Positions 1-56,799 of a stretch of 64,000 bases of DNA are shown here, in pieces. The stretch comes from Raillietiella orientalis (taxonomy: Eukaryota): positions 186,001-250,000 of the forward strand of contig JAYWIR010000034.1 in NCBI GenBank assembly GCA_036172245.1, given 5' to 3'. The notes under the pieces were generated by a model. The model was not told the origin of the DNA, made no database searches, and was given only the letters and a program-made list of their open reading frames with translations. The position numbers and the translations under genes are program-made. Position 1 is the first letter of the stretch, and each line of letters begins with the position of its first letter.

Positions 1-2060
1 CCTGCTACTGGTCTTCACAGACATGGAGAAGGCAGTTGACATCATGGACTACGGATGCTGAGGAGAATCCAAGAGAAAATGGGCTTCCCACAGTACTTTT
101 CCGAATACGTACGGATGACCCTGAACAGAGCCCATTTTCGGATCAAGATCAATGGGTACAAGATAGCAGAAGTCAGAACAGAAAGGGGAGTCCGTCAAGG
201 AGATATCCTTAGTCCACTGCTGCTTGCCATCTATGTGGAGGCTGTGTCGTCACTGGTCGACAGGGGTCACCGCCTCCAAGGAATCCGGATCGACGACGGC
301 AGACTGACCTACCTGATGTATGAGAGCGGTCTTCTCTTCTTCCTGAAGGGCGAGACGAATCAGCATGCCTTTCTGGACGTAGCGCAGTTCATAGAGTAAG
401 GACTAGGGCTAAAGATCAATGGCCAGAAATCCCAACTGTTGCCTGTCAGAATCCTGAACCCCTCCACACTAACGGAGAAAGGAATCCGAGTGATGGATCG
501 GATCAAGTACCTCGGAATCAGCGTCAGCGACGCGTCAGCGTCACAGACGTGGTGCAAGGAAATCCTGGAGAAGACCAGAGAGGAAGTAGCAACGTACAGC
601 CGGGTTGACTTCAACATGAAGCAAAGGACCAATTTTTGGAATGGCGTTCTCCTTCCCAAGGTGCTCTACGGAACGGTCTTCTGCCGAATAGATAAGACTC
701 GGATAGAAGTGGAAAAAAGAAAATTACCTTCAAGAATTTAAATCGCAGGTGAGGCTAAAGCTTTAATGCCTCCCGAGAGAAGGAGGGACCCAGATGAAGC
801 CACTGGAACATTTCGTGGAAACCATGGACCCGGGCAACTCCTGGAGCTTACCAATGATTATGACAAGAGGTCATTTGTGCACACCGAGCCTACTCGAAGC
901 TATTGATTAACTGGAGTGGCTTGATGACAGCCGTTGAAGGTCAAACAGGAGAATAGGTGAACAGAGATCCCACCTGAAAACAAAAACAGCACTGGTGAGA
1001 GTTCACCAATTCAAAATAATGCATAGGAGTAAAGAACTGCATGAGGAAGAACTGATCTTGGTGACTTCTTGCTTACTCCCGTTCCCCGGGGGACGGCTCA
1101 ATAGATAAACTAGTGGACCAGACTGAAAACTAGAGATTGCAAACAGTTCGCTACCAATGGCAACCAACATCAAATGAGAGTGTTCCAATACAACGGAAAA
1201 GTAAGTGGATAATTTACGCACAGAACACAAAATGTGGAAAAACCAAAAACAACTACGCGTGGTCGAAAACAATGCAGAAGGACTTTCGAAAACTCCCGCA
1301 AAAGACTGGAACCACGACGCTCTTTCCAAGGCTTCCAAGCCTTGGAAAAGGGATCCTCAACGTGCACCTGCGCGCGGTTGGAGGGACAGTCTGGAGGAGC
1401 GACCTACCACAGGACACTCAGGATGACCTCCTCACGTTTTATCACGTACGAACTCTGAGTGGTTCCACGATCAAATACTGGATGGGCAACATCTAGGATA
1501 AGTTCTGCACGGTATGTGGAGTCCCGGGGAGCGCGGCTCCACGTGCTCACCTGCCCAATGCTGCGCCAGGACGGGACAGCGCTGAAGACGGTGGCAGACC
1601 TGTAGACGAGTTCAAGGATGTCACTGGTGACATTATTGTTTGAAAAGCGTGGCAACGTTCTCCGTTACATTCCCATTGGACGTGCAGCGATTTCCCTCTT
1701 CATCACAAGCATTGTGATGAGAAGGGCCAAGCTACGGAAAATAAGAACAACGTCGGCCACATAAATTTTCAAAGGACATATTCAGAAGGAGATTGGCATT
1801 AGGAACTGTGGCCGAATCCCAGCCTGGATGTATTCCTACATAGACTGAAGACATCTCAGGGTGAACGGAATGTCCCCCAACCCACTAGTGACCAGAATCC
1901 GCTGACCCCATGATCTACACCCGGACTAGACTTGGAACAGTGACACTCAGTGCAATGGAAAGCTAAGTTTGCATGACATAGACGGCAGTGCCTATTGTAA
2001 CTGAGTAACTGCTGTTGTGAGTAACTGCTGTTGCTATATATGCCAGTTGCTTCCAATAAA
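1..2060 (+). mobile_element. Decayed L1/Tx1-clade LINE, 3' half of ORF2 (RT to C-terminal zinc knuckle) plus 3' UTR; cut by window start
   Basis: Frame gives DMEKAVD...RGVRQGDILSPLLLAIYVE (RT motifs). The YADD position reads YESG; in-frame stop at 397-399, then GLKINGQKS...IKYLGI. Frameshifted C-terminal CTVCG...HVLTCP near 1505-1557. AATAAA at 2055-2060 taken as the likely 3' end. Confidence 0.85.
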
Positions 2061-4280
2061 TTCACCCTATGGCTTGTCGGTCCTGGAAACAACCGTGAAA
2101 TCTCCCTCCACAAATTGGCAGCATAACCACTCATGAGTTGTTGCTCGAAAACTCCAAATACTTATAATCTTAGCAATGATTAGTAGACTCTTATCATATG
2201 GATCTGTGGATATGTCACTCATCATGAATATCAAAGATAATAATTTACGATTTATACGTATTCTAAAACTAATTATTAGGATCTTCAAACTTGGGAATAA
2301 TTTAAGACATTTGGAAACAGATTAATGGGATTCCAGAGATCAACAGACTCCGCTCAGAAAGAACCCATTAATCTCTGCAAGGAGTGATGGTCTGGAAGAG
2401 GTGTGATCTCAACAAGAGATGTACGAAAGCCATGCTCACAGGATGCCTTGCGAGCCCCTGCTGAGAAAACCAACGAACTCATGGAATACTTTTTTAGACA
2501 TCATCAGAGAGTATACCACAAATTTACATAAAAACACTCATGTGTCTGTTCATATTAACAGTTTAGAATATAAGTGATTTCACTATCATTTGGTAGTGGT
2601 AAATAATTCTGAAACAAAGAGTGAGATACAGTCCCAAAATACTAAAGTATTGAAATTAAAACATTCTGAAATGTGAAATGAAATCAAATAGATTCATACT
2701 AGAGGAAGACCTAAGCATTGGAAGAATTTGTGAATACATTTGAGCGAACTCAAATTCAATTTTTTTTTTTTTTTTTGTTTCAAAATCTGCTTTGAGATTC
2801 AACGTCGTTCACCATTACCTGAAAAATTATTTTTTTTTTCCAGAATTTTTAAGGAAAATAGATGATGAATCCTCTTTGATTATGGACAAGTTGTAAAATA
2901 GCACAGTGTCAAAAGAAATAAGACGTAACACAATAGCATTCAGAAAGAACTTTGAATAGAATTATAACAACTCAATCAATCCCTTTTTGAGGAAGTATTT
3001 ATATATATTTAAAGTATTTATAATATTTAAGGAAGGTAATATATAAAGTGAGAAGATGTAATGGAAGAGGAGATTCTGTAAAGGAATGGAAATAAGTTAT
3101 ATCACAATGTAATTTTAATTCACTACTAAGTTTCTGGACAATTAAATCATCTGTTGTAAACTTAGGGAATTTCCAAACAGAAGTATTCCTTCCAGAAGTA
3201 CCAGGTCATTTTTGCAAGGCGCATGTCCACTGTAAGGTATTTATTTATGATGACCAATAGGAGTATAAATAACTCTTTGCACACTTTAACCTCTGTGGCA
3301 GGTTTTCGATATCAGTGGTAGTTTTGTTTCATCCATCCATTTTTGTATATGATCTCTCAAATAGGAGCTTGTTTTAAATTACTTGAATCTTGTAGTGAAT
3401 TCTCTATTATTCGTTCAGTACATCAGGGCGAAGGAATTTTAGGATTATCTGGAAATTCCGTACATACATTTCCGAAGTTTTTGTTTCGACCAGCTTGCAG
3501 ATGACTGAAACAAAATCCGCAGGATGTTCGTTTCTAATTAAATTTCTCTGTACCTTTTTGTTTAGAAATTATTCAAGAGTCTTTAATTTATTTTAGTTAA
3601 TCGACTTGCTTCATATTTTATGTTTAATAGGTATCCATTATATTACAAATTCATAGGGTTTTCGAAAAATTCTGGCGTATTCGCCCCTTCGTACCACAAG
3701 CAACATATGAAGCTTCTGAAAGTAATTGGATCTTAGTTCTGGGATAATCCTATCTTTTCAAAATGGAGAGATCTTGCTTCAGGAGGATGCTTCTTGTAAA
3801 AGGAATCGAAGTTAATCCTTTTGAATCGATACGATTTACACATATTCGACAATTTCATCGACAAATTTTTTTTTCTGAGTGAGTCATTGCAGCCTTTGCG
3901 AAGTATCCATTCCTATATCTATCTTAAGTAACAAAACACTTCTTTTTCTAAAAGAAAAAAAATAATCTAGAAAGACATACCTGGTTCTACGACAAGATAA
4001 AGAAATATATATATATATATATGTGATCATCGTTATCTTAGCTTATTGAATCAAACTTTTAATTTCGATATGTTCACACTCCCTCAATCCAGTTTTTCGT
4101 GTGCTGGAAAGGCTGCAACGACAGTCAATCACCAAATGAGAAATTCAGATTTGTAAATCCATTCTGTTCCTTGTATTACTTCACATTCTTTACTGAACGG
4201 CTCGCCAGAACTAAAAGGAATTCATTTTTATTCGATAATGTCTAATAAGAAGAGCGTACAGAAACGATGTACTCAGTGAC

Positions 4281-5253
4281 GCCCGCGTCGGAGGCCTTGT
4301 GGTTAAGGCTTCCGCGTGTGGCACCATGCGTGGCGGGTTCGAATACTTCGGCAGATAACTGACGCCACTCCGTCGTTTGGGTTCCGAGTTTCTCCTGCAA
4401 GATGGCGCTGGTTGACCGAGACATTCGGGCGTGGCACCGGCGGTGGATAAAGCCGGCGGCCTCCCGATGAAGGCCGGAACAATGGGAGTCGACCTTAGGA
4501 TCCTCCCAGGAATAAAGGAGTGGGGAGTTCCCCCTCCGGTCGTGCAACGGAGAGCGGACCCCCGTCACCGGGGGACCGCCTCCGGTTTCAAGATGGAGCA
4601 GGAGCCCTCACGGGCACCTCTCCAGTTGTTCAAAGGGGCTGCCCCCCCTGTTGGGGGGTCCCTCCGAGTCGTCGCCTCTCCAGAAGAGTGCAAGGAAGCA
4701 AGCGAGAGCGATCCCCCTGCGGGAAGCTGCAGCGCCCCTTCTGAGTTTCGGAAGCATCCCTTCGGGGGTTGTCTTCAGAGGAGTGAATAAAGGAGCGGTT
4801 CCCTTGCGGGTTCCCTCCGGAGAAGAAATTCCTACAAGCGGATCCTTTCCGGGTTCCCTTCGGAGAAGTTGAAATGGAGAGGACACCACCCCATTAGGGG
4901 GGGGGTGTCCTCCGAAGAGAATGAGGAAGGAAATTCCCTTCGGGGTTTCCCCCTTCGGAGACAACCAGGGTTGGAGGTGCGATCCCCCCCGTCCGGAGGG
5001 ATCCCTCCCCAAGCGTGAGAGGAACGGACTCCGAGCCCTTCCTGGATTCATAGGGCGGACCCCCATCCCGGGATGCCCCCTATCCTGAAGAATTACACTG
5101 AAGAATTACACGCCCCCCTGCGGGTTGCCGTGGGTGGAGGGGCGTGGAAACAAAGAACCCAAGGATTTCCATCGTCCTAGGCTAATAGTAACGATCTCCT
5201 CGTGGGGTCGCTACTGGCCTTTTAAAAATTTTTCAATAAAAAAAAAAAAATAA
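4281..5253 (+). mobile_element. SINE-like element copy A (tRNA-like head, hairpin-array body, poly(A) tail), apparently full length
   Basis: Head has A-box-like AGGCCTTGTGGTTAAGGC and B-box GGTTCGAAT. Homologous to 61585-62509 from first base to tail. Ends in GGTCGCTACTGGCC-TTTT then an A-run. Direct repeat AGTGACGC at 4275-4282 and 5254-5261 resembles a target-site duplication. Confidence 0.75.
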
Positions 5254-6189
5254 AGTGACGCGAGGGCAAGAAATTCAGCTTCATGGGAATCCAGTTTATT
5301 ATTTCTGGACACCTTTAAATACTCGCTCTAACTGAAGAAGATTCCTTTCTCTCTCTCCCTGGGATGCCCATGTTTTCCAAGGATTTCTCTAGGACCAAAG
5401 TCAGCAGTCTTCCTTCCTATACAGACGGACTGGAGTGCGGTTTCCGGCTCAAGTGACCCACAAACACCCTTCTTCCAGGAAGAAATCTGCTTGACTATCA
5501 TAGCACTTTTTTAGACAGATTTATCACTTTTGTTACTTTTGCTGATGATGACTCGTCAGATGATCAATCTTCATTGACACTTTCCACAGTCAAAGCTTTT
5601 CCACGGTCTGAGGTCTGAATTTTCACCAACTTTATGCCCAGGTTCAGATCTTTCAGAGCATGATGCGCTTCCTCAGTGAAGGGATAACTTTTTCTGCTAG
5701 CCGTCCCGCTCAGATAGGATTAAGTTTACGAAATTCAGTCTCAGAATCCATTCTACTCATCAAGAATTCTGAGAAAATTGGATTCGGTGGTGTCTTCGTG
5801 TTCTTAAACAATCTCTAGAAAATTCGAAACTCGATCACATAGGACCTCTTAGGATATTCAACTATGTGAATGTCCTACGAGGTTTTCTGCGCAGAAGGCT
5901 TTTCAACATTTCCTCTGGAATCCATAGTTTCTTCAAAGGAGAAGATTCTGGAAACAAGCAATTATCGGAAGATCCAGCTGCTCTTGGCACATGAAAACCT
6001 TCGTATAATCCCAAACGGTGGTACCCTGAAAAATCTTCATTTTGCCCTGGCATCCTGGCAACTTAGGGTTCTCAGCCTCAACGTAGTCGTAATCTTGGAA
6101 ATGGGCATTCACTGAATCTATGTCCCACGGAAACCACAGTGGATGAAGACAACTGTCTCTAGCTTACTTCTGTACCACTGAGAATTTTC

Positions 6190-26299: not shown

Positions 26300-28750
26300 T
26301 GAAAAATTTCCCTTACCCCGACACCTCTGAATACCCTATCGGTATTGCCACCTGTGCTGGTGACGAGCCGTATAGAGCCTTGCTCTTCTTTCCTTGAGTT
26401 GGCTGAAGAGCTTCTCGCTTTCCCGGTCGCGGAGATCGTCGAGTGGGAGAACTTCTAGAGCGTGCCAGCTACATGACCGTGGAGCTGCTATCGTGCGTGT
26501 TGTCTGGTGGATGAAAATCCGGGACTTCTGTGTAAGGTTTCTCTGGTCTTCCTCGCGTATAAGGAAATGCACGAACGTCCATGCAGCCTACGAAGAGTGT
26601 GTCCACGCTATTCTTAGGGTAGCCAGTCTTTTTGATGGGCATCCGGGATCCTCAAGGAGTCCACTGACTATATTAAACAGAGATGGATGCAAATTATGGA
26701 CCTATTCAGAGCAACGTGGACATTGAATGGGGTTCCTGGCTGTGGGGGAAGGAAGAAAAGAAACGCAGGGAAGGAATGATAATCAAGTTAGGAACTTTCG
26801 TTACAGTGAAAAATCAGACCTCTGTATCTAACGCTCCCGCATGCTTGCGCTGGGAGTTCAGGCACACGGTTGGTACTGCAGCGTCGATGTGTTCCATGGA
26901 CGTTTCGCAATGCTTCTAACATCTTGCTGTATGCTGTACCCCTTCAAGACCACGTTCCTATCCTTTGCAGCATGAAGATGTTAGGGGACTCCCTCTTCAG
27001 ATTATCGCTATGCTGCCTGAGAGAAGCAGTCTTAGTGGGGTGAGTACTGTGGCGGACGACAGGGTCTCCATTGTAAATGAAGGCTGCATCAGGTCTTGGA
27101 AGCTAAGTGGCCCAGTTCTCTTGAGATGCGTTGTCAACCGACTTGCGATCGGAGCCCTCTCTCACCTCCTCTGAACTACTTGGACTGGAATGATGGAAAT
27201 CCTTTGGGTTCTTCTTTTTCTTTTGTCTTCGCTGTTTTTTCCTTCCAACTTTTTTTTTGGGGGGGAGGGGGTTCTTTTTTTGTTTTTGCTGATGTACTTT
27301 CCTTTTGGTACGGTGTCTCGTTCATCCAGACTGTAGTCTTAAATACAAAAACAAAACCACCGTTTGTTGGTGTCGGATGCATAGGCAGGAACTGTCTGGA
27401 AAGCGTCAAAGGATTCTCACGAGCTCATGGGAGAATATACAATAGTCATGGACGATTTCCATCCTTGTAGCCGCATTCCCAGAGTCCATGGACTTTACTG
27501 GGATCTGAACTCAATCTGCTCAGGATCAGTCCAGTCGCAATGGTTGGAGACTGCTGAAGGTTCGGTTGTACTAGAGATGTAGAGGAAGAGCGGTTTTTGA
27601 ATTTCATCCATAGATGCCTTTGCTCTTCCAAGATTCTGAACAGACCTGCTATTCTTCTGTTGGGAATCTGCGATGAACGTCCCTTCGTTCACAGCTTCCT
27701 GCTGCCATGCTTATAGTTCACCGGATGGATATCGATAGATGTCGCTGCTGCTGCTATGCTGGATCCACAAGTTGCATAGCAACTCAATGCAAGGAATTTC
27801 AACCTGCTTTGACTATGAGGTGGCAGGGATGTGGATGCTTTGATGCCCGCAACCTTCTTCAAAATGGACCTTCCGAGGCGGTATCAACGTTTATTCTAGA
27901 GGCTAAACATCAGACGTAGTCTTTGGCATTGTAACCACAATTCTACGCCCTCCAGCGTCCGGGATACTCCTTAGTGAATATTGAACAGCTTCTGCGATGC
28001 AAAGGGAACCTGCGGGCGTTCTCAAATATTCAGAGGAAACGCCATAAGATGGATCCTGTGAGCCTGTTTTTCCCATGACTTTCCAGCTGAGGCGACCATA
28101 GACTCTTCTTGCCTGTTTGTCCTCACGGCTGTGAACCTCTGGGTCAACGGAAAGAAATCATCGAGGGAGAGTGACAGGGTCAACGTGGGTAGCATTAAGA
28201 GGAAAACCTTCCGCGTGGGTCTCCATCTCCTGTTTGAAAGGGAAAGATGTAGGAGAGACCAGAGTGTGTGTTCAAACCAAACTCGTGTATAAAACACTGA
28301 ATCCAGACTGCCTCTCTTCTGGGTCCCTTGCCTCACTTGACCACCGTGCGTAAGATGGATCCCTGAAACAAATACCAGTTGGTCATTCGTTTCTCACCGA
28401 GTGCAAATAACTCCAGTAGACCTAAGCGTTCCAGAAGCTCTCTATTTAAGAAGTTCCAAAGCTACTCATCAGACCGACTGCAACCATTCCCAGGATCTTC
28501 TCTGTCTCGACTGTGTTCTGGTTGTCTTTTTTCTTTTTATCTGCTCCTAAGATCAGGGCATCCTCCTGATGAAAGTCAAGCCAACTCCGAAAGTTGTCCT
28601 GCCTGCTAGGGCTCATGGTCCAATTCATTGGCTCCTCGAAACACTTTCCACTCGGTGGCGCTGATGCTGCATGAAATTCTTCATCGGGAGCATTCACGAG
28701 ATCCATGCATCAGTGTGCTCAAAGTTCTCTGAGCAGAGGACTTATGAAAC
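26300..28750 (-). mobile_element. Heavily decayed non-LTR retrotransposon (RT, possibly followed by RLE)
   Basis: Degenerate RT motifs appear in the expected order on the minus strand: GKCFEE...SWLDF (~28650-28580), QVRQG (~28336), SLDDFF at the YADD position (~28165). An RLE-like stretch lies near 26400-26550. Many stops and frameshifts. Confidence 0.4.
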
Positions 28751-28849
28751 GTGTTCTGGTCTCCGCAGTGCGTAGCATCATCGTCTTCTCTAAGCCGTAA
28801 TCCCCGTCCAACCACCGGGGGAACGCAGTTCCTCAGAGGGGAACAGAAA

Positions 28850-29350
28850 GAAGCCACTGCCCCCGCCCAATCCGGTCATTCGATGCCACCTGCATACTTC
28901 GTCCGGGTCATGGAGCTCAAAATGAAGGATCTCTACTTTTTTCCTGCAGGATCTCTTCGGGGAACCTCCGATCATCGGAGAACCCGTTCCATTCAGTCGT
29001 TCCCTACTCAAAGTGCTTGGGGGGAGTAGGTGGAGGACGAGTTTCACACCAGGAGGACGGAGATTGCGCACTAGAATGGCGCGCAGGAGATCGTGCATGG
29101 AATCAACGAGAGACGCATCTCTCATCTTCAGCACTTCCGGCAACCGATATTCAAAGCTGTCTATGGGATTAGAAAACGGTCCATTGAAAGCCCGGGATTA
29201 ACCGAATGTGACAAGAGAAGAGGTTTATGGACCGCAGAGGTGTCTCTTGATCGCAGGAACAGATCTTTTCTGACGATTGTTCAGGAGAAGATGAAGGAGA
29301 CGAAACCCAAGAGGGTGTCCAAGGACCACACGGACCGATCTTGGCCGGCG
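28850..29350 (+). mobile_element. Possible decayed NeSL/R2-group RT thumb/linker fragment
   Basis: 'DLYFFPAG' then 'VEDEFH...QEIVHGI...RGLW' loosely resemble the post-RT region of RLE elements. Confidence 0.3.
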
Positions 29351-29882
29351 GTCTCCAATTCCATCCCTCTTTTAGGAGTTCCTCCTCCTCCAAGGCGGCG
29401 GTCGAAGCCCTCCGGCAGCTTACGAGGAGGCAGAGAGGAGCCTGCAAAAGTCGTCTTCTTCCGGTATTCTCAGTGCCCTCCGTGCAAAGGGGAGAAGGGG
29501 GTGCAGGGAAGGCGGTGCACGTGACCTGAGAACCCTCACGCAAGCACGCCAAGGGAATAAGGAGGGGAGACTGTTTCCGAAAGCATTTCCGGACTCGGCT
29601 TCTTTCTGCCTTTCCCGTTTTGCTCCCGAGGACCGGAGGAGGAGGGATCATGGTAATGGATGGAGGGATTCTTGCCCTCCCTCCATCTCAACCGATCGTC
29701 CTCGCTCACGCGATTAACGCATACCGGGCTTCTCTGAGCGGGACGTAACGCATCCGCCCGCGAGATAGCAGGCGCGTCGAAACGCGCGGAGGTGGGGGGA
29801 GGCTAGGAAGCCGCGCGCGCGCGCCGCCGCAGGGAAGGCAGTGAAGCGTCGGCTTGCGTTCCGTGCGGCTGCGTGTGCGGCC

Positions 29883-32800
29883 ATGGAGGAGGAGCTGCGG
29901 TGCGCCGCGTGCAAGCAGCGCTTCAGCTGCCCGGTGCTGTTGCCGTGCCACCACGCGGTTTGCCTGGGGTGCCTGCCGCAGGGAGGCGCCCCGGCCCCCT
30001 GCCTCCCCCCGTCGGAGCCTGCGGCTCGCTCGGACGCCTCTGACTCGGACCTCGCTTCCCTGTGCAGCGAGGCCGACAGTGGGGTCGCGTGCTCCCCCAG
30101 CAGGCCCAGCAGCTACGCGGGCAGCCCGCGCGCCGGGGCCCCGACCGGTTTCCCCGCGGGCGGGGAGGGCCTCCTCGCGTGCCCCACGTGCTCCCTGCCG
30201 GTTCTCGTCCCCGACCCGAGCACTCTGCCCCGGTACCGCCTCCTGCAGAACGTGGTCGACCGGCTCGACGACCGCTGCGGGCTTAGAGTCGCCTGCCAGC
30301 TTTGCGAGGAGGGCGGGTCCGCACGGCCCGCGGCTGTCTTCTGCGAGCAGTGCGAGATCTTCTACTGCGAAGAGTGCCGGATAGAGCTGCACCCGGCCCG
30401 AGGTCCGCTGGCCAGGCACGTGCTGTCCACCCCGGCGGAGGGCAGGGCCCGCCTCCGAGAGCAGCCTGCCCACTGCCCCGACCACAGGCAGCAGCCCCTC
30501 GCCGCCTTCTGCGTGGCGCCCTGCCAGGTGCCCGTCTGCCGGCTGTGCGTCCGCGGGGGGGCCCATGCGGCCCATGACGTCCGCGAGCTCGCAGCCGCCT
30601 GCAAGCTGCTCAAGGTAAGCCACTCCCTCCGGAGAGTGTGTCCCCGCGAGTGGTCCAGGGAGGGAAGGGGGATCTTCCCTAGCCCTCCGCCATTTCTCCC
30701 CATAGGGGGGCGGGGGCGCAGCATTGTTGCGGGGAAAACTCGCTCCGCGCCTACCCCCCGTGCCCACCCACCGCGTCTCCTTGGAAACGCGCGCCGCGTT
30801 CAGGCTGGCACGTGCGTCCCTTCCCCCCCTGTCCACGTCTTTGAAGATATCTCGGTCGTGCGTGGTGCGACCTACTCCTTTCCTTCTCCCCGTCCCCACT
30901 CCACGCGATCGCCTCCTTGCAGCACGCGGCTGCTAGGTCGGGTCAGGTGAACGCGAGTCCCCCTCCCCCCCTTTCGCACCCCGAGGGGGAGGGAGGCTGC
31001 TCTTCTGCGTGTGCTCCTTTCGGAGGCGGCCGTTAGGAGACATGCGCGAAGGCGGGCGAGCGCGGGGTGGACCTCGTTCCGACACACACCCTCGGGTGTC
31101 CTAGGGGAGAGCTCGGCGACGGGCGAGCGTCCCGGGTATACCTCGGGGAGGAAAGGGGAGTCCTCTCGACGGAGGTCATGGTTTCTTCTGCGCACCGCCG
31201 TCGCCAGGGAGCCCGGATGCGCCGTGCTCTCTTCTTCCCACTTTCTCGCTCGGCGGGATCCAGAATTCCCAGCGACGCGAAGGAGGATTCTGCGTTTCCC
31301 AGCCCTTTCCGTGATGAGGAGGGGAGGAGGGAGTCTCGCTTGCCCTCCCCACTCCAGAAAGTGGGCGGCTCGTCTCCCCTCCTCTTTCCAACCCTCCCTT
31401 CTTCCTCCCCTGATTTGGATCGGCCCCGCTGGCGCCTGCGAGCCGTGGTGGGAGCGGAAGGGTGGAGGTGCTCTTCGTCTTTCCCAGCTTCCCCATCTCG
31501 TCGATGATGTGGCGTTCCCTCGGGAGGGGGAAGCTGCTAGCCTGCGGTTCCTCGGCGCATCCCAAGGGTGCTGTGCCCCCCCCCCCTCCCCATCTTCCCC
31601 TTCCTCTCGCGAGACGCAGTGCTGCCAGGCGCATTCCCTCCTCCCTCCCTGCCTGTTTTTTGCTTTTGTGTATTTCCTCTCTTTCGCCCAATCCCGTCGT
31701 TCCTCCGACAGCAGGGGGCAGGACGGGCCCTTCTCGTTCCTGGGTCTCCCCCACCTCATCTTTTCTTGTCCCACCACCTACCGCCTTTCCTTCCTTCCTG
31801 TGTTGCAGGCGGAGCTGTCGAAAAGCCTTCAGCAGCTGTCCGAGAGGGCCAAGTCGACCACCGAGCGCGTGCAGAGCCTGAAGGCCGCCTCCGGGAAGAT
31901 CAGGGTGAGCTTCCTTCCCCCTCCTGCAGCCGGAGACCGCCCCCCTCTCCCGGGAAGCGAGCGCGGAGGAGGAGGGCTGCTGCTCCTTTTCCCGCCCGCC
32001 CCCGCGGCGCCAGTCGCAAGCCCGGAGGGAGGAGGAGGAAGTCGGGATGCCTTCCCAGGAGACCCTCAGCTTGGGAGGGGGGGGAGACGGAGGCCAAAGG
32101 GAACGGAAGAACGGATCCCGGCCGCGGGCTTCCCGGGGTGAGGCAGGATTGCGGCCGTTGCCTCGGTTACGCCACCGGACCGGAAGGTTCCTCGGGGTTC
32201 CGGAAGGATACTGCGATCAGGGTTAAGCTCGGACTCTCCCCCCTCATCCCGGAGGAGGGAGGAGAGGGGAGGGTCACGCCGAGATCTCCCCTCCCTCCTT
32301 CCCCTGGTGGAGTCTCCTCCCTAGTGGGAGATCCCCCCCCCCCAAGTCCCCGGACAGTTGTCGCCCCGGGGATGGAAGGGCCACGCCTCTCACTCACAAG
32401 CAGCCGAATGCCTCTTTCTGACCCCGACGCGTTGTCTCCAGACGGTGCGGAGGTAGCGAGGTTGCCTTTCGGTTGCCATCACGACGGGACGGAAAAGAGT
32501 GGAGGGGCGATGGCACTGCCTGCTCTCCCCCTTGGAGGACGGGAGCGCCGCCCGGTCGTTCCGCCTCAACGGGAAGCGCGCGGCCGAGCTTCCTTTCCCT
32601 CCTCCCCCCTTCCCTCAGGCACCCCTGGAGGAAGGAGGAAGGGAAGAGTTCCGTAAGGGCGCGAAATTTCCCCTCGGGGGAGGGGACTCTGGGGGCGCGC
32701 GCACCCCAGAGAGGCTCCTGCGGAGGGAGCTCGCGGTCCTCTCTTTACGGCGAGGACGCCCCTTGGTCACGAGCGAAGTCGGCGTGGGGGGAGGAAGAGG

Positions 32801-35800
32801 GAGGGTAAAGGTGGCGTTGGCCCGCCCCCTTTCCCCGCCGATCCCTTGACGCCTCCTCTCCCTCACTCCACGGGACGTCCTCGGACTCCTCTTTCCCGTC
32901 CCCCAGGCAACGGGGAGGAAGCAGCAGCAGCCAGGGGTGCCGCTGCCAGCTCCTTCCTTTCATCCTCCCTCCGTCTGCCCCCACCTGCGACCCTTCCGTT
33001 CGTGCAGTAGTCCCTCCTCCCGCACCTCCGGAAGACCGACGGTGCCTTCCTTGGGGCGGGGCATCCCCCGCATGACCGGTGGTGCTTCGTGACGACCGCC
33101 CTCCCTCCTTCCCTCACAGGAGAGCTGCAGCGCCGCGGAAGCTGCCACCGTCCGGGAGTGCGACCGGCTGATCGGCCTCCTGCAGAGCAAGAAGGCGGAA
33201 TTGGTCGAACAGATACTCCAGGCGAGGGACGGGAGGCTGCAGCGCCTCAGGGAGCTGCAGGTCAACCACTCCAGTCGGTTCCAGCGGATCACCGGCCTCC
33301 TCCATTTCTGCATCGAAGCCCTGAAGGAGCCAGACGCGCTGGCCTTCCTGCAGGTCCAGAGTCCCGGGATCCTCCCCTTCCGCCTTCTTTGACCCCGCGC
33401 CCCCCTCAGGCAGCAGACGCGCTCATCCAGAGGGTGGCATCCGCCAAGGAGTTTTGGTCCCAGGAGGAGGAGATGGTCCGCAAAGAGTCGGCCTGCGTTA
33501 ACCTGACCTTGGACGATAAGCCTCTGCAGAGAGCCATTCGCGAGCTGACTTTCGCCCAGACGAAAGGTAAGCGGGGGGCAGGAGCGAGGTGGGGCCTTCC
33601 CAGTGCTGCGTCGCGTGGAGGGAGCTGCGCACATTAGGAGGCTTCCGTTGGGATGCGCGGGCAGGAAAGGAAGCCGGGGGCGAGGGGTTGAGCCGGACGT
33701 GACCTCATAGCAAAACGGTCTGCCTGCGAATCCTCGGTTTCGGGAGGGGAGCGCTCGTCACACGCGCCCACTTCGCGTGGGGAGAGGGAGAGGGAGGGTC
33801 GCGAGCTCCGGGGGCGGGGGAGGAAAGGAGGGAGAGGGACGCTTTCTCCCGTGAGAACGGTAGTTCTCGCTGGACACCCTGTGGGGCAGGATCGAACAAG
33901 AGGCGCGCAGGGGGTCATCCCCTCTCTGCTGGCACGTGGACCCCCACAAGGAAGCCGCGGAGAACGTCCGTCCGGTGGGACCTTCCCCGGCGGTGGGACG
34001 TCTGGCAGGAGGGAGAGGGGTTCTCGCGACGGGTGAGCAGGAAAGCGGGGAAGGGGGAGGGGTTCTTCCTAGGGGGAGGGGGGATGAGCGCGGGAGGCCA
34101 GCATTTCGGGTGCCCGGCACGCAGACATAGGCGGTCCCCTGGGCCTGGGACTCTCGCAGCCTGTTCATTGCGGGAGTACTTGCCCCTCCTGGAAGGGTGC
34201 GCGTGGGGCATCCCTTCCTCCTCTCCCCCTTCCGTTCGCACCCTCGACTTTCCCATGCATCCCGGAACCACGAGCGCCCCCTCCCCTCCCCCCCTCGTCG
34301 CCGGGTCTCCCTTTCTTTCTCTTCCCTTTCTGACCCCTTTTCTTCTTTTTTTTTCTTTTTCAAGCATCGCAGGACGGGAGCAGCAGCATCCACGTATCAG
34401 GTAACTTGGTGCGTCCGGGAGGGGCAGGGAGGGGCGGTGCCTTGATCTTTCACAAAAATTCCGTTCGTTGCCTCCCCCGCGTCTCCAGGAGACGGCGACC
34501 TCCTCTCCCCTTCCCTTTTTTGGTAGGGTCCCGTCGCCACTCCCCCCTAACGGTGGGCTTTTTCTTGCCCCTCCCCCCTGCAGGCCCACCTGCCCATTGA
34601 TGGAGCTCCTGGAAGGCGATAGAGGGTGGGGTGGGGCTGGTCGTGGGTACCTGACAGAAAAAACCTACCCGCGGTCACCGCACTCCACCAGCTCCTCCCG
34701 GAGTAGGAGGACGGGATGAGGGCCTCCTCCCCGCTGTCCGGATCCCCTCGGCGCCTGCCGAAGCGATCACCCGGGATTTCTTCGCGGTCATCCATCCTTC
34801 TTCTCCATCCGGTCGCGAGGGAGGAGAGAGCTCCTGGCGGCGCCAGCAGCCCTCCGGAGTGGGCGCGAGGGGAACTCGGGACGACTTCCAGCCGCGCGTT
34901 CTGGCGCTTTGTTATCCGCCGACCCCCAGTAGGGTCGTTGCTTGTGAGGGTGTGCCTCCCGGGAGAAGGGGTGGGGAGGGTTGGGGTGGGGTGGGGTGGA
35001 GAAGACGGCAGCGGTGCGAGCGCTCTCGGCTCGACGTGTGCGAACACGATTCGTTCGCCGGCAGCGCCAGAGCTCATACGTTTCTATATTTGGTCGAGGA
35101 GGAGCGGGAAGGGAAGGTGAAGGGAGGAAGGAGGGGGGGGGGGGAAGGGGAGCGCGCGCGCGCGCCCGCCCAGCAGCCAGCAGCCCGGTGCAACGATCTC
35201 GAGGAGCGCGCGATTCAGCCGAGGATGGGCACGCGATAGCGCCGTCTCGCGCCCGCCCGTGCAGCGGCGGAGGCGCATACGCGCTCGCGAGCGTTCCCGA
35301 AGCCGCGGGCTCTGGCTGACGGTTCCTCCCCTTCCCTCTCCTCTCCGCCGTCGCGATTTCCCCGGACGACGACGGCATTGTCTTCGGCGGTGGCGGCGGC
35401 GGCGGCGGGCACCGTTTCTTGCAGCCGGGGTCCCAGATCCGGCTTCTCTCGGCGGAACCTGCTCTGGCTTCAGGGAAACAAAGCAGGAGGAGGAGGAGGA
35501 GGAAAAAAAAAAGACACGGGAGAAGCAGAAAACCCAGAAGAAGACGCAGCTTCCGCCAATCGGTTGCCGGGGCGTGCGGTGAATTTGGCCGTGACTCTCC
35601 GGCTGCTCACCCAGTGGCTGCCGCCGGGGACGGAGACGCCGGGTCACGCGTCCCGATGCTACGGCGGCCGAACGCGCTTTCCGGGCGGGGAGGTGGAGGG
35701 GTCATCGTCAGGGAGGAAGACCCCGACGAGTGCGCAGACCCGGGGAAAGTCAGCCGCGCGTCCGCCCGCAGGGAGGTCGCGGGCACGGTTACAGGGAGCA

Positions 35801-38800
35801 TCGAGAGTGCTCCTTCCCTGTTCCGTCTCCTCCTCGCTCCGGGTCCGCGAAAATCTCCCCTGCTGGTGCGCGCACGCCACCTGGCGCTCGGTCAGTGTTC
35901 CAGCGGCACCTCGCGGCGCCTCTGGAGATTAGGAAGGAAGGCTAGCAGAGCGCTGTCTGCGTGAAAGGCGACCCACGCGCCTGTTCCATTGATTCGTCGC
36001 CGAGGCCAGCCGGGAGGGACGCGCTTCGTCGCTCGGGGGCTTCCCGCACGCTGCAGACGGGCGGATCCCGTCCAGGAAGCAGCTGCTGGAGGGTTGTCTT
36101 TCGTCGTGGGGATCACCGAAATGCGGGCAATTAGGTAGTTCTCCGGACACGCACGGAACGCTCCTCCGATCGCGCGCGAGGATCTTCCAAGGGCGGTCTC
36201 CATGATTCCAGAAGGGAGAAGGAGGCGAGGGGCAGTTGGTGGTGTGCGTCCGCGCCTTTCGGCGGCTCTCCCGACGTTCTCCTCAGCTGCGGTGGCCCAA
36301 GCCCGCACCCACCCCCGCGTTGACGGACGCAGAATGGCAGCATGGTGGTCGCCCGACCTACTCGTCCCGCGCTCGAGTGGGACGTGGTGATGCCTACGAG
36401 AAAAAACCCCAACGGGAGGCGCGTGGGAAGTCCCTTCGCGCACGCGTTCGCTTTCTCTCAGAAGAGAGCGTGGGGCTTCGCTTCGCCTGCTGCGGCGTGC
36501 GTGCGGAGAGAAGGCTTTTGTTTCCTTGGTCCTCGCCGTCGGACGCGTGCGGAACGGTCCCATTCTCCAGCCTCCGCAATTCCCGCCGCTTTTGTCTCCG
36601 CCATATTTGCGCCCCGGCGCGCAGCGGGGCCGAATGGGAACGCACGGCGGCAGCGGCATCCTGCCGTCGCGCGAACAAGAAGCGGCCCACCGCTGCTGGT
36701 CCGCGTACCAGCGGTGTCCCTGCGAGTCCCGGGAGTTCCACGCCAGCATCCCCGGGCACAGCTCTGCATCTCGGGTGCGGAAACTTGTGCTGGCGACCGG
36801 TGTGCACCAAAGGTGCAATCGGCACTCGACAGGCATCGAGTGGGCGTTCCCAGCGAGCGGAGCAAGAATCGCTTCTGCCCCTCGAGCGAGTGGGTCCGTT
36901 AGTGGATCACATCCCTCTGCAGTTTTCCCCTGATCCAGGGAACGCAGAATTCCTCGTTTCATCCTTGCGAACCAGGCGCGAACAGAAGTCACGTCGTCGG
37001 AGGCGCGTCGGGCACGCGCGGAGGGTTTCGAGCGCCGCGTGCGTCGATGGACGCGACTCGCTCGAGCTGGTGGCGCCTACGCTTCGCCCGACCCCCTGGT
37101 GCTGCTCCGCGCCATTGGAGCAGCGGCGGCATGTCTCTCTTCGGGTACTTGCATGCTTCAAGATCACGTGATGCGTGTCCCGAGCGCAGCCCGGTGATGA
37201 CGGGCGCCGCAGTTCGAGCGCCTCGGCCAGCGCCTTTAATTCTCTTCCTGTCTTTTGCTGCGACGGAAACCGTGCCGGGAGCGAGCAGCTCGCTGCTGAT
37301 CCCAAACTGCGTGTTGCAGTCGCTGCGCGGCCTTTTCTTGCTCTTCAAAACGCAGCAGCTTTGATTTCCCAGGAAATGCGTTCCAGGGCGCACGAAACTC
37401 AAAAGCCGGTTGCCGTGGTGCTCGCTCAAGAGCCGGTCGCCGTGTCTCACGTCCCAGTCGCGGATTCCTCCGATGTCGGACGAGCAGGCGCCCTCCCTCA
37501 TTAATGTTGCATCAGAGAACGTAACGTTTAGATACATCGGCAAGCAGGTTGCTGAGTCCCTCGGGGAAATCGACCCTTATCATGCAACGCGCGCCGCCCG
37601 TGCCACCCTCTTATGGATTCCGGATACGGGGATGCCTTTAGCTCTGGTCTGCTCTTGGTGCAAGTGATTAGCCGTCGGATCCTGAGGCAACCAGACGCCA
37701 GCCAGCGGAATGGGTCTTTTTGCTTGCATTTGCCCCCGTGTCCTCTCGCTGACCATTTCTGCCCGTTTCTCTTCCTTCAGTTCCTGCACCGCCGACCATA
37801 CTCCTCGAAGGATGCAGCTCTGAAAACAACAACCTAACCATAGCGTGGTCTCCTCACGCGGAATCCATCGCGGAGGGCTTTATACTGGAGCTGGATGACG
37901 GCAGTGGTGGATCGTTCAAGGTATGTCGTTCGCAAGGCTCGAGGGTCGCCTGGAGACGCCTCCTTCCCCGCTCCGGTGCGAGGATTCGCTGCAGATGGCG
38001 CGCGCGTCGCAACCGATGTTTGCGCAGCTGAGGTGTAGGCGCACGTGCGTGGCAAAACCCTGTGCTCCCATGTGCCGGTCGGTCAGAGCATCCCTTTTGG
38101 AGATCTCACGCTGGATCCGGAACTTCGAATGATACTTTGCTGCGGGCATGCCTGCCTGCTGGTTGCGAGTCGAACTGGAAAGAAAGATCACATTCGTAAG
38201 CCCTGCTGCTGGGTGCAGCTGCTCGCTTCTTGCTAATCCCTCAGTGCGCGTAGCTGCAAACCGGGGAAGAAGAAGAAAAGATCCATAGCAGGGAGAAGGG
38301 GAAGGCAGGATCGACAGGCACATGTGTTTACGCGTAGTCCTGGTACTTGCCTCCTTGCGCCTGTTCTTTTACATTGACATTCCTTTACGCGATCCACGAT
38401 GGGCTCGGCAAAGCTTCACTCCGAAAATGGATGAACAAATACACAGAGATAAAAAAAGAAAAAAAGTGGGAGGGGGCCTGATAAGACCCCCTCCCTTTCC
38501 ATGGTTTGTTCCACGAGTCTGTGTCATTCGCAGCGTGGATCCAAGTCGGAAAGCTGCGCCTCACATTTCGGAGGTTCGGTCCCAGGTCGCTGCCGTGCGA
38601 TCGGATGAAAGGTCCGCGCTCTTCTGGTGGTCGCCTTGGGGACTCGTAGTCGAGTGGAGTAGGGAGCTGCCGTGCCGACGTGCATGCTGCCTTCGTCCGA
38701 TGAGTCAGACTTCGGAGCGGATGCATTAGTGCCGTCCATGGCAACGGGTTCCTCGCAACTCCTGACGCCCCACCAAATCGAGAAACGCAAGTAGCCGCCT

Positions 38801-41800
38801 CGCTGGGTGTTTATTTATCCAAGCGGGAAAAGAGTAGGACGCCCGAAGGCATTCTGATGGCAGCGCCGGGATTTCCGAGCTCCAGGGCAAGGCAAGCAAA
38901 CGAAGGGGGGGGGGGGGTACGCCGCCGATGGGGCATCCTTTCCGCTGTGCTCAGTCGTAGGGGGGGGGAGGAAAGGGGTCGCGGCGCGGTCCGGACATCA
39001 GGATGGAGACAACGCAGGACTCTGGAAGAGCATGCTGGTGTTTCTTGTGGATGTGAATCGTCAGCATGAATGGAGGGAAGGAAACCTTTGGGTAAATCTT
39101 CACGTCCGGATGCGGGCTGCTCCGCTCTTTGTCGGAGGCAGTCCCTCAAGATTTCCGTGCGGATGACGGATGCGCCTCGGAGAGGGTCGAAGGAGCGGTT
39201 CCGGTAGGAATGAGCCCGTCAGGTTCCCTTCGTTGGGGAAGGGGGAGCTCGACGCTTACCTGTTCCCTGCGAAGTTTCCGTCAGGTTCCAGGAGGCATCC
39301 TTCGCGATGTTTGACGCTGGGAGAAACTCCTCCTCCTGCCAGCCACACTGTGCACCAAGTTTCGCGCCCTCCGATGCGAGCGCGCGAGTCGGGACGAAGT
39401 GCACGGCTCTCGCATTCGCGCTGTTCGCGTGCGACCTTTGCACCCGTGTGCTCACGACTTTCCTGTCGGAGCGGTGGTTCGGCGGATCCATTTGGGTCAG
39501 GTCAGGCGATTTCGAGCGAGTTCGTTCCCGAGAGGAGGGGAGGAAAGTTGCTTTCGGAGTGCGCTACGGGGGAACGACTCGGTGACCTCGGGAACCGAAA
39601 GCAGCGGTCAGCTCCCCCCCCCCCGTCTCTTTCTCCTGTCTTTTTCCGGAAGCTGCGTGATGCCACCACCGGTGCTCCCGCAGATTTTCTTCCCCCCCCC
39701 ACCGGAACCGACCCTGCCTTCCGCGCTCCGTGTCCTCACTCGGAGTGACGTTGTGATGAACTGCGGATCCCTCTTCGTGAGATGCGCTTGCCGCAACTTC
39801 CTGCAAAAACGATTCGACTTGCTTGCGATGCGAAGCACGGTCTCCCTCTCCACTTCCGGATGTTCCCTTCCCGTGATCTGTCTGGATCACGACCCTGCAA
39901 AGGATGGAACAGGAGGGATCACGTCCAACCCCTTGTGGATGGAGCTGGTTCCGCGCCGCAAATCCCACGGTGACTTTGTCTTGCGCCAAACTCCACCTAA
40001 GAGCCGCATGGTTTCCTTGGTGCTCTCCGATGAGATCGAAGAGGCCGCGTGTTTCCTTGGCGCCTGCTTGCATTCCACGTCGAAGGACCCGCGCTGGGAG
40101 CCGCTGCAGAACGTCTTGGACTGCGGTTTTCTTCCCTTGAGGTTCCACCGATGCGTGCGCGTCCGTCCGCCGTCGAGCGCGCTACTTCTCCCCCGTCAGT
40201 CCGATCGGAGGCAGGCGAACGACGCGCTCAGATGCGAGCGCTCGTTCGTCAGCCTTCGGCTCGTTCGTCTCGTCACGAACGAATTGGGGAAGGTGGGGGC
40301 GGCTGCGCATTTGTTGAACATCCCTTCCTTGTCTTCTTCGCCCTCGTTTCCAAGATGGGTTGCGTTTCGCCTTCTGCCTGGGAAGGATGGCGTCGATCTC
40401 CGCGTTTCGTTCTCCACGTTTTCGTTCCGCATTCGTCCGCTTCCCCATCCTGTCGCATCTCCTGCGACTGGATGCTGATGCTTACGTTTTTTTTTTTTTT
40501 CTTTCCCCTTCTCTCTTCCTTTCTTCATTTGAGTCTCATCAAAAAGATTCAGCCGATTCGCCCTTCGTGTCTCCAAAGCGCTCAGATCTTTGGAAGGCTG
40601 AATCGCGCTTCTGTTGTGAACTTCTTTCAGAGTGCCACTTAGCAACCGAATCAGCATCTCACCCTAAATCTCCTGCACGTCGCCTTGCTGTTGAGGGTGG
40701 AGTGGTGGTCGCAGGAAGCGCTGACTGGGAGTGCTGACTCTTGTGCAGCTGTAAGCCCCTTTTTTCTGGACTGCGGATCACAGAGAGCTGCAACCCGTTG
40801 CCACGGTTTCCAAGTGCGGAAGCTGCACGCAAACGCATCGGCCAGCTCGTGATAGAGAAGTGGATCCTGGTAGGAGAACAAGAGGCTCGTCTTCGGAGCT
40901 CTAAAAGTGGCCACGAGAGATGAGATTTTTACACGGGGATGCTGGGCGCTTCCATGTCTCACGTTACACCTTCGTTGCTGAGAGTCACGTGCTCTTTCTT
41001 TCCTTCGGCCGACCTCGAGCGGGCACTACCTCAGATCCACGTGGACGAGGTCTCCCTTCCGTGATTTGACTGCCTTTCTTCCAGCTCCCTTCCCCCTTTC
41101 TTCATCCCCACGAATCACATGGTTCCGCTTTCCGGAGAGTGGTCAGGTCGAATTAGGGAGCTTCCATCTTCGATGAGGCTTCCCGGAGCCAAACATCTCA
41201 CGAATCCGTCAATGTCACAGTTCCCGGTGACCGATCTGACACAAACACGTTGCTGCTCAACTTGTTGGTGAAAATCTCTTCATCCAATCTTCTGTACCTC
41301 TAGGAAATGTACCGCGGCATCAACACTGCGTGTACTGTCGGAGGCCTCCATTTCAACAGTGTATACAGAGCGCGCGTGAAATCTTTCAACAGCATTGGGA
41401 CCAGTTTGTACAGCGACACAGTTGCCATGGAGACCTCTGAAGGTGAGTTTGGAAGAAGGCGTCTTGTTTTACGAAACCTACCTTCCTGCCGCGGTGCTTC
41501 CGGATCATCCCGAACCACATTCTCTGTGGGCGCGCTCGAAGAAGTGACCCTTTTATCCCTCCTCCCTCCGTCGCAGGCTGCTGCTGCTGGCTTCTTGTTG
41601 TGTCATGAAAACGCACCAAGATGCTAGCAAACAGCGAGGACAGGGCGAAGAGATGGGCACCATTCCTTCGTGCAGGGACGCGAACCCCCCTTCGGAAGCG
41701 CTTTTGGTTTTTTCGCAGCTCCCTCTCACAGAGGTCGCCCGGTGACACCCTCGTCTCCGAGGGAACGAGAGGGTGCTGAAGACCGCGGCGAGGATGCCGG

Positions 41801-45863: not shown

Positions 45864-45927
45864 GTGTGCCTGAAGCCATACTCTTGTATATTGTATTATC
45901 TGTAGATCTCTAATTAGACAGATATTT

Positions 45928-45933
45928 ATTAAA
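45928..45933 (+). promoter_or_regulatory. Candidate polyadenylation signal (ATTAAA) of Trim9
   Basis: ATTAAA about 65 nt after the stop codon, followed by a T/GT-rich downstream stretch near 45950-45965. Confidence 0.4.
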
Positions 45934-56215: not shown

Positions 56216-56648
56216 CTTCAGATCCTCTGGAGGAATCTCGAGCAGCTCGCCCCAGCGTATGAGTCTTTGGGGGTGGGACACTCAGAGTCGCAGCGTCCGT
56301 GAGTTTCCGTGTTGTCCATGCAGCCAGAAGTCTCTTTTTTGCTGCAGTGCAGCAGGTAACTTCTCACCTTGCCGGATTGAGATTGCTCCTTGCTTCTTTA
56401 AGGAAAAGCAGCACTCGGTTAAGGGAGGTAAACCATGTCCACAGGGTTTTTCGTGGTTTCCTGGGATCTCCTGCAGCGATTGACGAGCGTAAGCGACGCG
56501 TTGCAGCCAAGCGAATTTCGTCTCCCTCATGGATCTTTGTCCATAAGCTGGACACCATGAGACAAAGTGGAAATGACGATGCTCCCGCAAGATGGGAGGT
56601 ATCCGAAACTTTGCGTTCCGCTTTTCAGTCCTTCCGTGTTGGGGGGTA

Positions 56649-56799
56649 GTGGGCCGATCCCGGAGGTACTGCAATACCGGGTCAACCCCCTACAGGAGAG
56701 GAGCAAGCTCCAAGCATCCCGTCCACTTCCAAAAAGTAGTTTAATATACTGGCCACCAGATCGGTGGCGTATCAGATATTAAGCTGATAAGAACAGATA
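56649..56799 (-). ncRNA. U2: U2 spliceosomal snRNA, lacking the first ~36-38 nt (disrupted copy)
   Basis: Minus strand reads TATCTGTTCTTATCAGCTTAATATCTGATACG (stem IIa), GCCACC-GATCT-GGTGGC (IIb), TTTTTGG Sm-site region, GGAGCTTGCTCC (III) and CCGGTATTGCAGTACCTCCGGGATCGGCCCAC (IV with U2B'' loop). The canonical 5' part ATCGCTTCTC...GTGTAG is replaced by foreign sequence ending AATAAAA. Confidence 0.95.

Follow-up and report, generated by a model that had tools for sequence, protein, structure and literature searches.

The DNA at 4283-5253 of the window (i.e., the whole 64-kb stretch that was analyzed) is probably a copy of a LINE-dependent, SINE-like composite retroposon, non-coding, approx. 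0.9-0.97 kb in length and built around a VNTR-like core. It looks unusual but is essentially an ordinary mobile element. The reading as a SINE-like retroposon rests on the target-site duplication, the A-rich tail, the dispersed and diverged copies, the related copies in two public sequencing runs (X1 and X2) and the lack of a coding signal. The window holds four copies of one family, and the copy considered here (copy 1) carries the hallmarks of insertion and an array of repeated units. A partner LINE would mobilize the family, and the 3' stem-loop may have a role in this. By the mechanism that we propose, a LINE reverse transcriptase would copy the non-autonomous element into the genome by target-primed reverse transcription, and the element would consist of three parts, i.e., (i) a head of approx. 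230 nt with tRNA-type T-arm/B-box-like motifs, which would represent a probable internal Pol III promoter, (ii) an old, diverged array with a period of approx. 41 nt, in which a unit of the form GGAG-GG-UU-CCC / loop / GGG-UU-CC-CUUC would be joined to a purine-rich linker and in which the number and identity of units would vary between copies in a VNTR-like manner, and (iii) a conserved terminal stem-loop, followed by a T-run and then by the A-tail. An earlier note on this DNA had described much the same anatomy, largely correctly, but had over-read the "design" of the hairpins. The features of copy 1 and the other copies are as follows.

4275-4282, plus strand: 5' target-site duplication AGTGACGC, longest string common to the two flanks
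4283-5253, plus strand: copy 1, whole element, a retroposed copy with body and tail
4283-4508, plus strand: head of copy 1, approx. 230 nt
4509-5146, plus strand: G+C-rich, hairpin-rich body of copy 1, from local folding
4750-4953, plus strand: core tandem array of copy 1, 27-nt units, from the covariance model
5085-5111, plus strand: 13-nt tandem duplication CTGAAGAATTACA, 2.1 times, in copy 1 only
5179-5220, plus strand: 3' terminal stem-loop of copy 1, ending in GGGTCGCTACTGGCC, z = -3.2
5220-5253, plus strand: tail of copy 1, i.e., T4 (5220-5223), A5, T5 (5229-5233), CAAT, A13, TAA
5254-5261, plus strand: 3' target-site duplication AGTGACGC, longest string common to the two flanks
61585-62509, plus strand: copy 2, full length, of a different subfamily; an additional A-rich segment precedes its 3' stem-loop
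43920-44762, plus strand: copy 3, degraded at both ends, without 3' stem-loop and tail
57820-58130, plus strand: copy 4, a 311-nt fragment that retains the latter half of the head and, from the body, the first hairpins

Copy 1 shows both hallmarks of retroposition, as a perfect 8-bp direct repeat (AGTGACGC) lies on either side of it and its end carries an A-rich tail (with A13); the last two bases (GC) of the 5' duplication may also represent the first two bases of the element. Together, the perfect 8-bp duplication, the 3' stem-loop, the T-run and the A-tail indicate that copy 1 arose by target-primed retroposition. The 15-mer GGGTCGCTACTGGCC in the stem-loop (5205-5219) is identical in copy 2 (62470-62484), and copies 1 and 2 are 63-78% identical outside it; the stem-loop with this 15-mer is a candidate recognition site for the reverse transcriptase of the partner. 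A T-run is located immediately 5' of the A-tail in copies 1 and 2, the only two with tails. In copy 2, T6 at 62486 is followed by A14 (62496-62509), and the target duplication (AAACTTT) is ambiguous. The hexamer AATAAA sits inside the tail of copy 1. No T4 run was found in the 939 nt before this tail (4281-5219), an absence that is marginal (P = 0.045 with dinucleotide shuffles and P = 0.35 with mononucleotide shuffles).

A blastn comparison of the element with the window found homologous segments at 43944-44559, 58061-58121 and 61585-62509 only, each with 63-78% identity (best E = 4e-34), and the alignment of the four copies has a mean column identity of 53%. The stretches at 61585-62509, 43920-44762 and 57820-58130, for which the earlier note had claimed the same layout, are thus homologous copies by both blastn and alignment. 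All four copies are on the plus strand. When a profile of the four copies was run over both strands of the 64-kb window, no other copy was credible, the sole extra match having an E-value of 4.4. Contigs of runs X1 and X2 were also aligned to the element at a likeness of at least 80%. For X1, one contig of 955 nt spans 4297-5154, from which it differs by 40 letters and 36 gap positions. For X2, 336 pieces were located on the element (6 at 99% likeness or more, 65 at 95-99%, 198 at 90-95% and 67 below 90%). As the unique flanks of copy 1 were essentially uncovered by the X1 and X2 contigs, these pieces indicate that the family has multiple copies in at least one further data set, probably that of a different genome. 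In several X2 contigs, a stretch of 78-209 nt, from 4828, 4829 or 4929 to 4909, 4952, 5008 or 5039, is skipped and replaced by 23-29 other letters, which indicates that copies differ by whole modules. Many dispersed copies were found overall, i.e., four in the window plus those in the X1 and X2 contigs. No loci for the element were found in a collection of prokaryote genomes, both of the loci from a metagenome collection were chance matches in unrelated contigs, and none of five loci from viral contigs matched the family profile. In both runs of this profile, its only match among the collection loci was a 22-mer in one of the metagenome loci.

The core of the body consists of repeated units. 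Fifteen segments from the four copies align to the 27-nt consensus GGAGCGGTTCCCTTCGGGGTTCCCTTC with 63% mean column identity, and this unit occurs 4 to 6 times per full copy, with an array period of approx. 41 nt. Copy 1 has units at 4750-4776, 4792-4818, 4835-4861 and 4927-4953, interrupted by a non-unit hairpin at 4881-4910. Units start at 61820, 61988, 62029, 62068, 62109 and 62150 in copy 2 (the last five being spaced by 41, 39, 41 and 41 nt) and at 44321, 44362, 44401 and 44471 in copy 3, where C14 and (TC)8 at 44178-44207 take the place of an early hairpin; copy 4 has a single unit (58097-58123). A covariance model with 9 base pairs was built from the 15 units and used to scan both strands of the window with filters off. 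At E < 0.001, this model yielded 16 matches, all on the plus strand, 15 of which were its own seeds and match by construction; the sole new match was located at 39192-39231 (plus strand). Hairpins of copy 1 outside the unit model reached E-values of 0.33 (4635), 2.5 (5021) and 8.9 (5052). The two hairpins that the earlier note had quoted are present (4594-4624 and 4792-4818), and its claim of a shared hairpin design holds in part, in that a repeated 27-nt unit exists but fits only four hairpins of copy 1 at E < 0.001 (4750, 4792, 4835 and 4927).

Units also match across copies at differing places. The unit at 4835 in copy 1 matches the unit at 44362 in copy 3 over ATCCTTTCCGGGTTCCCTTC, and the unit at 4792 matches the unit at 62029 in copy 2, which indicates loss or gain of units in a VNTR-like manner. 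The array was not detected by TRF in 4000-5500, because the units are too diverged, and a self-blast of copy 1 gave only one significant internal pair (70% identity, E = 4e-4). Given the occurrence of 27-nt units at a spacing of approx. 41 nt, the core represents one unit, composed of a hairpin and a purine-rich linker, that was repeated in tandem long ago. The competing explanation that the earlier note had named, i.e., simple minisatellite expansion, largely holds in that the core is an array of one ancestral unit with a period of approx. 41 nt, but this array is old and diverged and not a simple minisatellite.

The body of copy 1 (4509-5146) was compared to 60 dinucleotide shuffles for the number of its hairpins, with the pairing span limited to 50 nt. 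Local hairpins of -10 kcal/mol or lower number 11 in this body, as compared to 10.0 +/- 1.5 in the shuffles (21 of 60 reach 11), and 8 hairpins at or below -15 kcal/mol, as compared to 5.2 +/- 1.7 (4 of 60 reach 8). The dozen or so hairpins that had been reported (11 by this count) are close in number to the expectation from composition (10.0). The local-fold energies of the same body sum to -263.2 kcal/mol, the shuffles averaging -221.9 kcal/mol (z = -3.8, beating 40 of 40 shuffles); for copies 2, 3 and 4, the corresponding z values (-1.3, -1.8 and -0.6) were not beyond shuffles. Individual hairpins of copy 1 reached z values of -4.0 and -6.0, with weaker orthologues (-2.0, +0.4, -2.5 and -0.9). 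In one set of orthologous hairpins ("AUGGAG...CUCUCCAG"), the inner stem differs in each copy, and the hairpin folds in three of the four copies (z = -4.0, -2.0 and -2.5), the fourth being the exception (+0.4). Overall, we lean towards the view that descent from one ancestral hairpin unit, helped by high G+C content, chiefly accounts for the hairpins.

Folding of the two strands showed that, for copy 1, the minus strand had a z value of -6.0 as compared to -3.8 for the plus strand with local folding, and of -4.96 as compared to -3.22 with global folding. Each strand of copy 1 has 16 G-U pairs, and the unit alignment holds 23 G-U and 15 A-C combinations, i.e., no clear excess of G-U. Among 16 units, 82.5% of cells were paired (76.9% when shuffled), 12 both-side changes were observed (5.3 when shuffled) and the covariation score was 0.384 (0.286 when shuffled), with none of 500 shuffles reaching the observed value for any of the three measures; these figures for pairing and covariation are liable to inflation by the kinship of the rows and by the fitting of the unit alignment to the structure, and related rows can outdo every shuffle even without structure. 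When partners were slid by -1, 78.7% of the cells in these units were still paired (score 0.275). RNAalifold on the four copies yielded long-range pairs with no net covariation, as the covariation term was unfavorable (+3.36) and a double change was found in 15 of 112 pairs. Some changes look like kept structure, i.e., CCC/GGG turned into CUU/AAG in unit 44321, and CCUC/GAGG in unit 62150. The same holds for the adjacent hairpins at 4548-4584 and 4594-4624, which have the same symmetric A-opposite-A mismatch and UCAC loop with different stems, and for hairpin 4881-4910, in which all four changes listed for the X1 contig are in the loop. The claim in the earlier note that stem changes are often compensated thus finds modest support (12 both-side changes vs. 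5.3); covariation is weak among the units, and the RNAalifold result across the four copies is unfavorable.

Any retention of the stems is explained equally well by a process acting on the DNA and by selection on the RNA. The stems may have been made or re-perfected in the DNA by short template switches, quasi-palindrome correction and unequal exchange, with no selection on the RNA, which we regard as possible, if somewhat doubtful. Template switching at the DNA level can create and maintain stems, as documented in the available excerpt of PMC8794818. Equal folding of both strands and complementarity that is essentially Watson-Crick are in keeping with such a process, and so are the coordinated multi-base differences that the lineage of copy 1 shows on both arms of a stem (4881-4910 as compared to 62068-62094). 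On the other hand, symmetric A/A and UU/UU mismatches (4558/4575, 4604/4617 and 4799-4800/4812-4813) are unlike the outcome of reverse-complement copying, and the copies are too few for single switch events to be detected.

Alternatively, the hairpins of the source RNA could have been kept by selection at the RNA level, either as a multivalent binding platform (with, e.g., proteins of the partner LINE or a host RNA-binding protein as possible ligands) or as a stabilizer of a long Pol III transcript, in what would still be a SINE-like parasite. We consider this unlikely. The excess of folding in copy 1 over all 40 shuffles and the z values of its single hairpins would fit such selection, as would the three measures on the 16 units that exceed all 500 shuffles, the folding of the "AUGGAG...CUCUCCAG" hairpin in three of four copies despite differing inner stems, and the confinement of the listed X1 changes to a loop. 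However, the minus strand folds equally well or better, both locally and globally, G-U pairs are equal in number on the two strands of copy 1 and show no clear excess over A-C among the units, the number of hairpins equals the shuffle expectation, copies 2 to 4 fold no better than shuffles, the unit figures are subject to the effects of kinship and structure-fitted alignment (with 78.7% pairing even after the slide), and the RNAalifold covariation term is unfavorable. Overall, the evidence for RNA-level structure is weak, as is that for retention or "perfecting" of stems in source genes; the folding excess of copy 1 and the double-sided changes among units suggest that some stem constraint may be possible.

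None of the seven ORFs of the element copies contains a Pfam family, and the open frames are explained by composition. A coding element was rejected on these grounds, and the element is non-coding and non-autonomous, as SINEs are. MicroRNA precursors were rejected because the stems are too short. At gathering thresholds, Rfam found only a U2 snRNA (56644-56827) in the window. Two further features of the surroundings are listed here.

40-396: decayed reverse-transcriptase fragment, the only one in the window
29883-30614, plus strand: TRIM9-like first exon (RING and two B-boxes), within a block of 55-68% G+C

A partner LINE with the same 3' end is absent from the window, as the reverse-transcriptase fragment lacks the common tail; a word-based search found no relative of this fragment. 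The best matches of the TRIM9-like exon are chelicerate TRIM9 proteins (42-44% identity). Observed/expected CpG ratios across the window range from 0.52 to 1.06, unlike those of vertebrate genomes; they speak against genome methylation of the vertebrate type, and the source is probably an invertebrate animal.

At the start of copy 1, 42 nt form a single long, near-perfect hairpin (4281-4322; -29 kcal/mol, z = -6.0) and not a tRNA cloverleaf. Downstream, the head holds a B-box-like sequence (GGTTCGAATAC, 4336-4346) and a second T-arm-like motif (4379-4392 in copy 1), which occupies one and the same place in the alignment of the four copies (and reads GTGGGTTCGAGTTTCC in copy 2); the two T-arm-like motifs of the head are approx. 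45 nt apart. The head also contains a D-arm-like sequence (GGCCTTGTGGTTAAGGC), which we take to resemble those of class-II tRNAs. Matches to the B-box with at most one mismatch are located at 4336 and 44017, but B-box-like matches at this threshold are not enriched in the window (9 found as compared to 13.6 expected), and an A-box with at most one mismatch is absent from every head. ARAGORN found no tRNAs in the window and gave mutually inconsistent calls with relaxed settings. Each of the four copies was also scanned against Rfam, which the earlier note had recommended searching; none of the 4, 8 and 6 matches that a permissive threshold (E <= 10) let through was a tRNA, 7SL, 5S or ribozyme, all of them being weak and unrelated. 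We thus found no cloverleaf of a tRNA gene or pseudogene. A 7SL, 5S or snRNA head was rejected for want of a match in the Rfam scans of the copies, as were hammerhead and other ribozymes. The A/B-box head that had been described is weak, as a tRNA model match, an A-box and B-box enrichment are all lacking, although the four copies share the T-arm-like motif. A tRNA-related origin of the head is plausible from its sequence, and Pol III transcription from a promoter within the head is likewise plausible, the indirect evidence for such transcription being the marginal avoidance of T4 and the terminal T-run.

Among known elements, tRNA-derived SINEs, as described in the available part of PMC3531059, are similar in being non-coding and dispersed, with target duplication and an A-rich tail, and in the order of a B-box/T-arm-like head, a body and a tail. 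SINEBase comprises 175 families of 75-662 nt with a mean of 253 nt (PMC3531059, same part), and SINEs are defined as no longer than 600 bp in the excerpt of PMC9599045. Without their tails, copy 1 (approx. 940 nt) and copy 2 (approx. 900 nt) exceed both limits. Unlike the tRNA-derived SINEs described there, the element also has a head that is missed by tRNA models, a poor A box and two T-arm-like motifs. CHRS of cetartiodactyls, termed a "quasi-oligomer" SINE in the same part of PMC3531059, has a motif of approx. 20 nt repeated more than 10 times; it resembles the element in that a degenerate short motif is tandemly repeated in the body and that variants differ in repeat number, and differs from it in that the unit of the element has approx. 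41 nt and an inverted repeat, a comparison made by description (PMC3531059). The CpG content of the window also speaks against a mammalian source.

SVA and LAVA of hominoids, according to the excerpt of PMC4432496, are non-autonomous composites on the kilobase scale that have a variable tandem array, rich in G+C, at their center and an A-tail at their end. A central variable array was found here as well, with a period of approx. 41 nt and a set of units that varies by copy and contig. SVA and LAVA differ in their Alu-like and SINE-R/L1 modules, their Pol II transcripts and their restriction to primates (PMC4432496, excerpt). The Rfam scans of the copies gave no Alu-like/7SL match, and the 5' and 3' modules of SVA were not found; the relation is one of analogy, not membership. 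In another reading, which is decidedly unlikely, the element would not be a Pol III SINE; Pol II would transcribe it as a non-autonomous composite, either a LINE derivative with an internal deletion or an element akin to SVA/LAVA, with normal polyadenylation and mobilization in trans. A length of approx. 0.95 kb, the central VNTR-like array shared with SVA/LAVA (PMC4432496, excerpt), the lack of a model-supported tRNA head and the AATAAA in the tail of copy 1 would fit such a composite, but the T-arm/B-box-like motif, whose place in the head is the same in each of the four copies, argues against it, as do the T-run before the A-tail in both tails, which, with no T4 upstream, fits Pol III termination, and the absence of a LINE-like coding remnant.

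In the T+ SINEs (B2, Dip, Ves and Can), AATAAA and a terminator precede the A-tail, and the available part of PMC9599045 places these SINEs in placental mammals only. The element resembles them in having a terminator of T4 or longer directly before the A-tail in both tailed copies, and differs in that AATAAA is absent upstream of the T-run in either copy (PMC9599045, excerpt), a comparison based on two tails. It is improbable, in our estimate, that the family represents an undescribed invertebrate class of Pol III retroposons of approx. 0.95 kb, whose source genes would keep a multivalent array of short GC hairpins (with conserved, symmetric internal loops of the A/A or UU/UU type, and capped by UUCG or UCAC) that binds proteins of the partner LINE or the host, and whose transcripts would end at their own T-run and then be A-tailed.

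Retro-pseudogenes of a cellular, functional Pol III non-coding RNA of approx. 950 nt, serving as a scaffold or decoy, are highly improbable, because the length atypical for a SINE, the lack of T4 before the 3' T-run and the structure of copy 1 modestly above shuffles are outweighed by the lack of an Rfam family match, the weak covariation without strand asymmetry, the lack of a tail-less master locus in the window, and the hundreds of X2 pieces and the subfamilies differing by whole modules, which point to an amplifying element and not to a gene. The earlier note had left the choice between a SINE and a scaffold RNA open; the target duplication, A-tail, copies, non-coding nature and a length beyond that of the SINEs in the available part of SINEBase speak for a SINE-like retroposon, and the functional scaffold RNA of approx. 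950 nt gained nothing from the hairpin count, the strand comparison, the G-U pairs or the RNAalifold term (+3.36).

With regard to the preferred composite retroposon, the observations that stand against it are the lack of a tRNA, 7SL or 5S match and of an A-box, the marginal avoidance of T4, a length greater than that of every SINE in the 2012 SINEBase (PMC3531059, available part), the lack of a partner LINE in the window and the folding of copy 1 beyond shuffles. A literature search for exact strings of 7 element motifs found nothing relevant, as only a generic 15-mer of the tRNA T-arm matched tRNA papers. A keyword search of the literature found no description of a family with such a layout; as Repbase and Dfam entries lie outside that search, novelty is unproven.

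As matters stand, the family is chiefly an item for repeat annotation, and the tests leave little to support a functional scaffold RNA. If the family is truly undescribed, it would widen the range of lengths and architectures of SINE-like elements, as it would combine a body on the kilobase scale with hairpin units arrayed inside it and, outside mammals, with a terminator ahead of the A-tail. If the reading as a long Pol III retroposon were true, the family would use a T+-like mode that, in the available part of PMC9599045, is so far reported only in placental mammals. The family would also provide a handy system in which to ask whether structured repeats help a parasite RNA to compete for the LINE machinery.

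Both copies of the SINE-like, non-coding element that keep their tails, i.e., copy 1 (4283-5253, +) and copy 2 (61585-62509, +), carry a run of T residues immediately 5' of the A-tail (T4 in 5220-5253 and T6 in 62486-62509, respectively). The same order of T-run and A-tail is known from mammalian T+ SINEs, as described in PMC9599045; the tails of the element, however, have no upstream AATAAA. In copy 3 (43920-44762, +), the region that holds early body hairpins in the other copies is replaced by C14 and then (TC)8 (44178-44207).

The following features were found outside the copies:

40-738 (+): LINE reverse-transcriptase fragment, decayed (RVT_1, E 1.2e-4)
29883-30614 (+): TRIM9-like first exon, encoding a RING and two B-boxes, with a GT donor at its end
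39192-39231 (+): single match to the hairpin-unit model (a covariance model of 27-nt body units; 21.4 bits, E 3.5e-4), the loop of which is larger than in the model
56644-56827 (-): U2 spliceosomal snRNA, full-length match (model positions 1-192, 114.8 bits)

The LINE fragment is interrupted by an in-frame stop (397-399), shares no common 3' end with the element, and had no relatives by protein search. The lone match to the hairpin-unit model may be what is left of a fragmented copy (a relic), or else it arose by chance, the DNA there being rich in G+C.

CpG observed/expected ratios ranged from 0.52 to 1.06 in 4-kb bins across the whole window (minimum at 16-24 kb), and CpG depletion is therefore weak or mosaic, a pattern from which vertebrate genomes differ.

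The TRIM9-like exon, whose best database matches were chelicerate TRIM9 (only 42-44% identical), lies inside an approx. 18-kb block (28000-46000) with 55-68% G+C, as compared to 30-50% in the rest of the window. The U2 match, which may represent a gene or a retro-pseudogene, is located upstream of copy 4 (57820-58130, +), at a distance of approx. 1 kb. Copies 2-4 are all downstream of the TRIM9-like exon, share its orientation and possibly lie within introns.
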